The notes under the pieces were generated by a model that worked only from the letters and a program-made list of their open reading frames with translations, did not search any database and had not been told where the DNA came from. A program made the position numbers and the translations under genes. From the NCBI RefSeq assembly GCF_030699305.1, contig NZ_JAUYNB010000031.1, positions 6,492-70,491 of the forward strand: a DNA stretch of 64,000 nt, in the 5' to 3' direction. Origin of the DNA: Novosphingobium sp. (GTDB lineage Bacteria; Pseudomonadota; Alphaproteobacteria; Sphingomonadales; Sphingomonadaceae). Positions 57,352-59,504 of this stretch are shown here, piece after piece (positions within the stretch are counted from its first letter, which is position 1; each line of letters opens with the position of its first letter).

Positions 57352-59504
57352 ACCCGATATCCGAAGCCGACGCCGCCAACGAGTTGATGCGGCTGGCGCG
57401 CCAGATCGCGCGGCATAACAAGCTGTATCATGCCGAGGATTCGCCGGAGATTTCCGACGCGGACTATGACGCGCTGGTGCGGCGTAATGCGGAACTGGAA
57501 GCGGCCTATCCGCACCTGATCCGCCCTGATTCGCCCAGCCGTCAGGTCGGGCATGAAGTCGCTGCATCGCCGCTGTCGAAAGTCACCCATGAAGTGCGGA
57601 TGATGAGCCTCGACAACGCGTTCTCGGACGAGGACGTGGCCGAATTCGTCGCGCGGGTGCGGCGGTTCCTGGCGCTGCCGGAGAACGCCGAAGTGGCGAT
57701 GACGGCGGAGGACAAGATCGACGGGCTGTCGTGCTCCTTGCGCTATGAAAAGGGCCTGCTGGTCCGCGCGGCGACGCGCGGGGACGGGCAGGTGGGTGAG
57801 GACGTGACGCCCAATGTCGCGACCATTGCCGACATTCCGCAAATCCTGCGCGGCAACGTGCCGGACGTGTTCGAAATTCGCGGCGAAGTGTTCATGAGCA
57901 AGGCCGATTTCGCCGCGCTCAACGCCGCGCAGGCAGAAAAGGGCGACAAGGTCTTCGCCAACCCGCGCAACGCCGCCGCTGGATCGTTGCGGCAAAAGGA
58001 CGCCAGCGTCACCGCCAGCCGCCCCTTGCGGTTCTGGGCGCACGGCTGGGGCGCGGCGAGCGCGGTTCCGGGGGCGACCCAGCTGGAGGTGATGCAGGCG
58101 ATTGCCGCTTGGGGGCTGCCGGTATCCCCGCTGCTGGTGCGCTGCGCCGATACCGCGGCGATGCTGGACCACTACCGCCGGATCGAGCGGGAGCGGGCGG
58201 AGCTGCCCTATGACATCGACGGGGTGGTCTATAAGGTCGATCGGCTCGACTGGCAGGAGCGGCTGGGTTTTGTCGCCAAGGCGCCGCGCTGGGGCATGGC
58301 GCACAAGTTTCCCGCCGAACGCGCCGAAACCACGCTGGAAGCCATCGACATTCAGGTTGGCCGCACTGGCAAGCTGACACCCGTAGGGCGGCTCACCCCG
58401 GTAACGGTGGGGGGCGTGGTCGTCTCCAACGTCACGCTCCACAACCGCGACGAAATCGCGCGGCTGGGGGTGCGGATCGGCGACCGGGTGGTGATCCAGC
58501 GCGCGGGCGATGTGATTCCGCAAGTGGTCGAAAACCTGACCCGCGACGAACCGCGCGCGCCCTTTGCCTTTCCCGATCATTGCCCGCAGTGCGACAGCGA
58601 AGCGGTGGCTGAGGAAGGCGAGGTCGATGTGCGCTGCACCGGCGGGCTGGTCTGCCCGGCGCAGCGGACCGAGCGGCTGAAGCACTTCGTCAGCCGGGGT
58701 GCGCTCGATATCGAGGGGCTGGGCGAGAGAAAAATTCGGGATTTTCTCGCAAAGGATTGGATTAAAAATCCAGCAGATATCTTCCGATTGAAGAAATATA
58801 AGAACGAGATGGCTGGCCCAAAGGGTAAGCGCCTCAAATCTACGGAGAAGTTACTCGCTTCGATTGAAGCAAAGCGAACGCCAGACTCAGTTAGATTTCT
58901 CATAGCTCTTGGAATTCCAGAAATCGGAGAAGTCACGGCTCGCGAGCTAATGAAGGGCGTTCGGGATTTGAGGGTTTTACCCAAATTGGCGAACGAAATA
59001 TATTTGTTGCGCCAATATGCGAAGCAAGAGGTCGAGGAAAGCAAGGCGTCTTTCAACGCGAGAATGATTGAATCAGTGCGGAAAATATTAGCGGTCAATT
59101 CCCAGGGTATCGGAACTTCTGCCGCTTTTGCGCTTGCAGACTTTTTCCATGAAACACACAATTGCGAAGTGTGGACTGACCTGCTTAACGAGGTTGACCC
59201 GCAAGATTTCGAAATTGAAGTTGTCCTGAGTGAAGTGACAAGCAAAACCATTGTTTTCACAGGCACATTAGCTACGATGGGGCGTGACGAAGCAAAGGCC
59301 TTGGCGGAAAAATTAGGCGCGCGTGTGGCTGCGTCAATCAGCCGCAGCACCGACATCCTGGTTGTTGGAGAGGGTGGCGGGTCAAAGCGTAAGAAAGCCT
59401 TGGAATTAGGAATTAAAGTGATGACTGAGCAGGAATGGCTTCAAGTCACTGGCCGAGTAGAAAAACTTGGGGATACGCATGACCAAGGACAACTCTTTTT
59501 TTAA
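57348..59504 (+). CDS. ligA: NAD-dependent DNA ligase; 3' third of atypical composition
   Basis: [21 protein letters not shown], Zn finger C..C..C..C, HhH, BRCT TIVFTG...GEGGGSK. Confidence 0.96.

Follow-up and report, generated by a model that had tools for sequence, protein, structure and literature searches.

A Novosphingobium DNA ligase gene with an imported low-GC 3' end and a linked phage-type BRCT gene

The ligA locus and its composition break

The stretch of DNA considered here, hereafter referred to as the window, comprises 64,000 nucleotides of contig NZ_JAUYNB010000031.1 (positions 6,492 to 70,491 of the forward strand, assembly GCF_030699305.1) and belongs to a Novosphingobium-like genome assembled from a groundwater metagenome. 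It contains ligA, the gene for the DNA ligase LigA, followed by a small gene for a BRCT-domain protein and by a cinA-family gene. The ligA gene is recombinant: codons 1-460 are native, and codons 461-718 were imported together with the small gene, referred to below as the passenger gene, in one piece that extends up to the start of cinA. The features of the locus are listed in Table 1.

The translated ligase displays a K-I-D-G motif and four cysteines, and by Pfam it contains the Ia domain, the KxDG adenylation domain, the OB domain, the four-cysteine zinc finger, the HhH domain, and the BRCT domain. It scores 794.7 bits against NCBIfam model NF005932 (cut-off of 369) and 735 bits against TIGR00575 (cut-off of 444). 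The match to HHH_2 covers 30 of 64 positions and lies slightly below the cut-off. As stated in the initial annotation of this DNA, which was made from the sequence alone, the open reading frame is intact and the HhH and BRCT motifs are kept; the motifs quoted there are located at residues 454, 521, 597, 634, and 678.

The GC content of codons 1-460 is 0.670, with a value at third codon positions (GC3) of 0.83, and the corresponding numbers for codons 461-718 are 0.469 and 0.48. A change-point search on GC3 places the break exactly after ...ALDIEGLGE (residue 460, positions 58727/58728) with a likelihood ratio of 95. This is the very codon at which the initial annotation had described an abrupt shift in codon style. 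Its sampled GC value for the 180 bp after the break was reproduced (42% versus the 43% given), but that for the 60 bp before it was not (68% versus 75%). The low-GC segment had also been taken to end at 59504, and this boundary requires correction, for the tract passes the ligA stop codon, spans the passenger gene, and ends only at the cinA start, where the GC content is again ~0.7. The block so defined (58728-60121) is 1394 nt in length with a GC content of 0.48, and no other block of this length in the 64-kb window falls below 0.58 (mean of 0.651, standard deviation of 0.029).

Table 1 Features of the ligA locus in the window
Feature	Positions	Strand	Basis
ligA, 718 amino acids	57348-59504	+	complete LigA domain set (Pfam, NCBIfam)
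ligA codons 1-460: Ia, adenylation, OB, zinc finger; native, high GC	57348-58727	+	Pfam and NCBIfam domains, GC3 0.83
Left recombination joint, GCTGGGCGAG/AGAA, codons GLGE/R	58718-58731	+	end of blastn homology, GC3 change-point, junction alignment
ligA codons 461-718: imported low-GC HhH and BRCT end, 258 amino acids versus 225 native	58728-59504	+	GC content, divergence, AlphaFold model
Passenger gene, 203 amino acids: four-helix N-terminal domain and BRCT domain	59479-60090	+	phrog_3989 match, GC3 0.50
31-nt spacer, right end of imported block	60091-60121	+	comparison with native ligA ends
cinA-family gene, native high GC resumes	60122-60625	+	Pfam CinA, GC3 0.80, blastn homology resumes at 60123

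The window derives from a metagenome assembly. The initial annotation had allowed for an assembly chimera. Such a chimera, or a binning artifact fusing two organisms inside ligA, can be set aside with near certainty. A single 69x contig from run X1 spans positions 58000-60800 with zero differences, and separate contigs from a second, independent sample (X2) span one junction each, the left at 58517-59037 and the right at 59605-60378. In addition, native high-GC sequence flanks the block on both sides, and the same architecture is found in independent NCBI, ENA, JGI, and Logan assemblies.

For comparison, ligA loci were taken from the 80 nearest species available in the genome collection, most of which are Novosphingobium; the L-numbers used below denote the contigs fetched from relatives. 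Approximately 70 of the 80 species keep a native HhH-BRCT end at normal GC content. This end is typically 225 amino acids in length with the same GC content as the N-terminal part, and longer versions occur only through in-frame insertions of normal GC content. Among the complete C-termini of these species, only L056 carries the combination of ligA and a small BRCT gene, and L074 has an internal patch that is described below. In the nearest relative, L008, whose N-terminal part is 96% identical to that of the window, native high-GC sequence runs across the junction, and the nucleotide identity between the two is 90-98% right up to the left joint. In blastn comparisons with 30 relatives, the window loses homology at 58726-58731 and regains it at 60123. 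The prospect that relatives might share the window C-terminus, also raised in the initial annotation, is thereby removed: L008 and others keep a congruent native end. The import took place after the split from this nearest sampled relative.

The divergence of the imported end is confined to one side of the joint. Relative to the native alleles, the N-terminal part of the window ligase has a mean identity of 84% and a maximum of 88%, whereas the C-terminus averages 46% and does not exceed 49% against 71 native C-termini. Across 2485 pairs of native alleles, by comparison, C-terminal identity tracks N-terminal identity (means of 82% and 83%, respectively), with the C-terminal values ranging from a minimum of 65% to 98%. 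Two other origins of the low-GC end were considered and rejected. Decay in place of the window's own native end is at odds both with the near identity of the N-terminal part to that of a native-ended relative and with a boundary that is a step lacking any gradient. A donor-derived tract hidden upstream of the GC break was discounted since L008 remains the nearest match to the window all the way to the joint.

In the relatives, cinA starts 4-7 nt past the native ligA stop codon. The exchange in the window replaced a native 678-bp end and a few intergenic bases with 1394 nt. Within the 31-nt spacer, the 9-mer GTTATCGAC (60091-60099) corresponds to the V-I-D codons of native ligA and is possibly left over from the end that was displaced; a rough estimate of the probability of such a match by chance is ~0.005-0.015.

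The model of the imported end calculated with AlphaFold has a mean confidence score (pLDDT) of 87.7 and consists of a helical HhH domain and a BRCT domain. Its best match in the PDB is LigA itself (9a6z_B, 246 columns, E of 5e-11), and the HhH domains of 4glx and 2owo also match. The imported end retains the invariant positions of the family. The chimeric ligase is probably functional, inasmuch as all of its domains and invariant residues are kept and its fold is predicted with confidence. The HhH domain contains an insertion of ~24 amino acids that is common to L291 (...NARM(I/L)..V(R/K)...). The loop that hosts this insertion is the same one in which some Novosphingobium alleles (L087, L022, and others with C-termini of 250-273 amino acids), otherwise native and of normal GC content, carry in-frame insertions of 30-48 codons. 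The loop thus tolerates large insertions.

When the complete window ligase was searched against 5.8 billion proteins, no match exceeded 79% identity overall, which is the value expected of a native relative. The best match to the C-terminus alone was 51%, and no closer relative was found in the 5.8 billion proteins, phage records, plasmids, or IMG/VR. Those of the best C-terminal matches that were inspected proved to be ordinary ligA genes, frameshifted or fragmented in draft assemblies and lacking an adjoining small BRCT gene. The imported end is nearer to sphingomonad ligases (41-51%) than to those of the Rhizobiales (35-38%). As no match above 51% was obtained anywhere searched, we infer, rather than see, a divergent AT-rich pool as its source.

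Recurrence of the arrangement in Sphingomonadales

The small gene was found directly behind ligA in 15 further Sphingomonadales loci, namely L001, L003, L056, L088, L089, L109, L117, L122, L132, L136, L138, L139, L151, L291, and L293. Wherever the flanks are visible, the order recN-...-ligA-BRCT-...-prmA is maintained. The two genes overlap by 26 nt in the window, with the passenger start codon lying ahead of the ligA stop codon, and are separated by gaps or overlaps of 0-17 nt elsewhere. No terminator was found between ligA and the passenger gene.

The extent of the AT-rich, divergent tract in ligA differs from locus to locus (Table 2), from none through the last 50-120 codons and approximately the last 250-280 codons, as in the window, to still longer tracts. 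The left joints are located in GLGD, after GLGE, after EKTI, at ADVF (~25 codons later), at VTLHN, or within the last ~50-120 codons, or they are absent. They fall within strongly conserved coding segments of short length, at positions that differ by a few to many codons. Variable joints in conserved stretches argue for ordinary homologous recombination rather than for a site-specific cassette. The initial annotation had proposed an allelic-replacement cassette that recombines at ligA and carries cargo, with a survey of Sphingomonadales ligA for breakpoints at the same codon as a check. The replacement allele and its linkage to cargo are supported, and the arrangement recurs; the breakpoint, however, is not a fixed codon, and the cargo, though physically linked, amounts to one gene for a phage-type BRCT protein.

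Table 2 AT-rich tracts and attached ligase ends at loci with the small BRCT gene
Locus	AT-rich tract in ligA	Protein identity of ligase end to native	GC3 of ligase end
Window	from about DIEGLGE onward	48%	0.48
L001	from ~25 codons after DIEGLGE	52%	0.47
L003	from about DIEGLGE onward	55%	0.56
L056	from about DIEGLGE onward	63%	0.49
L291	last ~120 codons	72%	0.76
L293	from about DIEGLGE onward	75%	0.53
L132	last ~52 codons		
L136	begins further upstream		
L089	begins further upstream (joint at VTLHN)		
L088, L122	none		

In four of the loci a native ligA stub, made up of the final 9-21 codons with their stop codon, follows right after the small gene. The stubs are very clear in L109 and L003 (scores of 89 and 77) and marginal in L117 and L001 (34 and 33), the 95th percentiles for shuffled sequences being ~28-31. 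The initial annotation had reported no remnant of a native 3' end, which is correct for the window, apart from the possible 9-nt trace, but not for these four loci. A further observation concerns L074 (positions 8371-9067), which has a native ligA and no small gene. It contains a lower-GC internal patch that is 72-83% identical in nucleotide sequence to the L003 variant, which suggests that native and variant alleles once recombined here.

The stubs also resemble the remnants expected on the attR side of an integrated element. Integrating elements are well known to replace the 3' end of a gene, as in icd with phage 21 or e14, and the small gene, which is a prophage gene, adjoins int in phage K139. 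The arrangement could accordingly be read as a temperate phage or island with an attachment (att) site at the 3' end of ligA and its own replacement end, since deleted down to the BRCT gene next to attL. We consider this quite improbable. The window block holds the 3' part of ligA and a single BRCT gene but no integrase, recombinase, or other phage gene, and in all six sister loci with gene calls no integrase is nearby. Flanking the window block are no att-like direct repeats, merely repeats of 11-14 nt at the level of chance; searches for terminators, promoters, tRNAs, and Rfam RNAs in and around it revealed nothing beyond chance. To this extent the absence of att repeats and integrase, as initially annotated, is upheld. 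Moreover, the left joints differ between loci, such that there is no fixed insertion point, and all 16 loci carry exactly one extra gene, unlike the outcome of independent decay. Finally, a ligA-like piece adjoins the small gene in none of 32 viral contigs, and no viral contig carries a close relative of the ligase end.

The ligase ends of the window, L001, L003, and L056 are mutually 38-49% identical and are as far apart from one another as from the native ends. Those of the window and L291 are placed in one lineage because of the HhH insertion common to both. In every comparison the ligase end is less conserved than the linked small protein, the identities being 43% versus 71% for the window and L001, and 63% versus 94% for L122 and L136. 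Synonymous sites (dS) are saturated between most of the attached ends, including the informative and most divergent pairs, which indicates that the lineages of ends are old even though the acquisition in the window is recent relative to its nearest relative. Where dS is measurable, the ratio of nonsynonymous to synonymous change (omega) takes values of 0.08-0.18 in the ligase end and of 0.02-0.10 in the small gene. The dN/dS check named in the initial annotation thus gives no signal of positive selection in those pairs (omega <0.2), dS being saturated in the most divergent ones.

Candidate explanations for the AT-rich, fast-diverging ends are relaxed constraint, diversifying selection, time spent in mobile DNA, and escape of rare alleles from GC-biased gene conversion. 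In L293 (positions 2921-4984, beside a small BRCT gene), the GC3 of the C-terminus is 0.53 versus 0.85 for the N-terminal part, an AT shift with little change in the protein. A native-like protein with a low GC3 fits, at least in part, a mutational or conversion explanation.

The passenger gene and its phage family

The passenger protein matches phrog_3989 with an E value of 2.2e-55, its residues 17-203 aligning with profile positions 103-292 of 296. The family comprises 704 homologues, with members on 32 viral contigs, and has a mean column identity of 71%. In Vibrio phage K139 the family member is orf2 of the lysogenic operon cI-orf2-glo-int, and in Pseudomonas phage phi1 it lies directly after the repressor. 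On IMG/VR contigs, the gene upstream of the family member often encodes a repressor with an HTH domain or with HTH and S24 domains. The Rhodopseudomonas member is found inside a prophage and that of Chelativorans inside an integrase-bearing island. The passenger is a lysogeny-operon gene of temperate phages, where it is cotranscribed with the repressor. In the window, however, no phage gene was found between 52.5 and 64 kb, and the passenger follows ligA rather than a repressor. Judged by its sequence, it belongs to phrog_3989, yet it resides in a non-phage context.

The C-terminal half of the passenger protein is a BRCT domain that is closest to those of LigA and of RFC1, a protein that binds 5'-phosphate DNA ends. 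The possibility that the small protein is a copy of the HhH-BRCT end of LigA was rejected, as a profile-profile comparison indicated homology in the BRCT domain alone. In the model, the N-terminal half is built from four helices. Weak matches to Pfam TerB (PF05099) were recorded for three of 25 family members, the best with an E value of 0.017, and fold searches of the N-terminal half against the PDB and viral models matched nothing, with only the BRCT domain yielding matches. The searched literature contains no tested function for any phrog_3989 member. According to a 2026 preprint (PMC13345283), the presumed DNA-damage-sensing regulatory modules of Roseobacter prophages include cI and BRCT genes.

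Comparisons with defense families were likewise limited to the BRCT region. PADLOC model PDC-S48 matched the passenger with merely 27 bits over ~110 residues centered on that region and thus not as a whole protein, and NCBIfam GapS2 matched the BRCT domain of LigA alone, at 28.9 bits versus a cut-off of 330.

The close coupling of the two genes, with overlaps or gaps of at most 26 nt, raises the question of whether they form a co-adapted conflict module, in which the small BRCT protein and the variant ligase end would work as a functional pair and the linkage would go beyond hitch-hiking. The small protein could, for example, bind or mimic the BRCT/HhH end of LigA as a decoy, guard, or regulator, and phages targeting the host ligase, or dependent on it, would maintain the diversity of the ligase end through selection. 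The initial annotation had pointed in this direction with its suggestion of conflict, such as evasion of a phage inhibitor, for which the lysogeny-operon origin of the linked gene would be circumstantial support. The association is one-way, for the small gene accompanies every low-GC ligase end found and none of the ~70 native alleles. The lower conservation of the ligase end relative to its linked small protein would also fit, as would the origin of the small gene in a lysogeny operon, the usual position of exclusion and defense genes, and its occurrence behind ligA in several subgroups of its own family. Nevertheless, we regard such a module as unlikely. The small gene is also found behind fully or almost fully native ends (L088, L122, L132, and L291), and in most genomes and prophages it lies far from ligA; a matched ligase end is therefore not required. 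L074, conversely, has variant ligase sequence in the absence of the small gene. Positive selection is not detectable where dS is unsaturated, and known defense families match only weakly and over the BRCT domain alone.

Two loci outside the main set contain the small gene in other surroundings. In a Sphingomonadaceae contig (L204, positions 8001-10220) it is located away from ligA and is followed by a gene for a 463-residue reverse transcriptase (RVT_1). On a short contig (L115, positions 705-1070), the small BRCT gene is followed by an opposite-strand fragment of the ligA C-terminus.

The surroundings of ligA in the window have a separate peculiarity. Six copies of a 24-nt perfect palindrome, CCCCCTCCTCTnnAGAGGAGGGGG, are found at 56777-57337 and 63780-63849, with zero expected by chance. 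They form arrays like those of repetitive extragenic palindromic elements, and these arrays flank a DUF559 endonuclease-like gene (56752-57351) squeezed in between recN and ligA. The arrays give rise, in several frames, to pseudo-reading frames with a repeated 10-residue sequence.

Origin of the chimeric gene and its relation to known systems

On balance, we consider it probable that the window gene arose by an allelic replacement through homologous recombination in which ligA sequence was dragged along with a phage-derived gene. According to this scheme, the unit of the partial ligA and the BRCT gene would spread between Sphingomonadales species by ordinary homologous recombination, with ligA itself serving as the homology. 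The left crossover could fall anywhere in ligA and the right crossover in a retained ligA stub or in the flank. The ligA sequence would hitch-hike with the small gene, and the window would represent one recent recipient. The traveling ligA ends would be old, separately evolving lineages that have drifted to an AT-rich composition and diverged fast, and the small protein would presumably be co-expressed with the chimeric ligase.

Several points weigh against this explanation. The first is the failure of the searches described above to reveal a donor. The second is that hitch-hiking alone leaves unexplained both the AT-richness and a divergence beyond that of any native sphingomonad ligA, as well as the use of a single site by small genes from several subgroups of their family. 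Indeed, the ligA-linked small genes were monophyletic in 0 of 100 bootstrap trees, although the protein is short and the backbone of the tree is poorly supported. The third is that the right joint in the window lies outside of recognizable ligA sequence, with only the 9-nt trace to mark it.

What the small protein contributes to its host is the most speculative part of the analysis. By analogy, a BRCT domain of the RFC1/LigA type suggests binding of 5'-phosphate DNA ends or nicks. The likeliest role would be a prophage-style one, either exclusion of incoming phage DNA or sensing of DNA damage, that is now wired to the ligase operon. The matching family members of the K139 Orf2 type directly follow cI-type repressors; the window gene differs in that it stands outside any prophage and is fused into a host ligase operon.

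Three other known systems bear comparison with the locus. In Escherichia coli and Salmonella, gnd, next to the rfb O-antigen cluster, is a mosaic housekeeping gene that hitch-hikes with a selected low-GC accessory locus. The ligA locus is similar in its patchwork core gene, its variable breakpoints, an import far more divergent than the rest, and the lack of a dedicated recombinase. It differs in that the accessory locus is a single 0.6-kb gene of phage type, the core gene is essential and its swap follows the HhH-BRCT domain boundary, and no native gene of any known organism matches the imported ligA ends. With icd and phage 21 or e14 it has in common a hybrid gene that stays intact by means of a substitute 3' end, with a native stub downstream in L109, L003, L001, and L117. 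Here, however, integrase, att repeats, and other phage genes are missing, the joints vary, and the replaced tract amounts to as much as a third of the gene or more. The third comparison is with the two-subunit NAD+ ligases of T5-like phages (PDB 9hu3, phage PR1) and the XRCC1-Lig3 pair, in which a ligase core operates with a separate C-terminal or BRCT partner. The BRCT folds of the window ligase and of the small protein match the 9hu3 and XRCC1-Lig3 entries weakly (E of 0.003-0.01). The window ligase, though, is unsplit and keeps its own HhH and BRCT domains, and the homology of the small protein to LigA is limited to the BRCT domain. In the literature searched, no paper on a mosaic ligA or on the linkage of ligA to a BRCT gene was found.

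Less likely still than a co-adapted pair as such is a broader proposal, namely that the DNA-binding and BRCT end of the ligase is a long-lived, cross-species polymorphism kept diverse by phage-host conflict, with a domesticated BRCT partner acting as a decoy, a guard, or an end-capping exclusion factor. If true, the partial ligA and the BRCT gene would together make up a compact immunity module of two parts that relies solely on homologous recombination for its movement.

Essential replication genes are usually taken to be stable vertical markers. Here, a third of ligA, corresponding to a pair of domains, is exchangeable, and many divergent versions of it are present within one order. As a consequence, phylogenies based on ligA and quality checks of metagenome-assembled genomes in the Sphingomonadales can be misled by the mosaic. 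The locus offers a natural system for asking how far the HhH/BRCT end of LigA may vary, and, with the native-like protein and low GC3 of L293, a test case for the AT-enrichment of rare accessory alleles. It also provides a handle on a widespread, strongly conserved, and uncharacterized family of prophage proteins that adjoin phage repressors.

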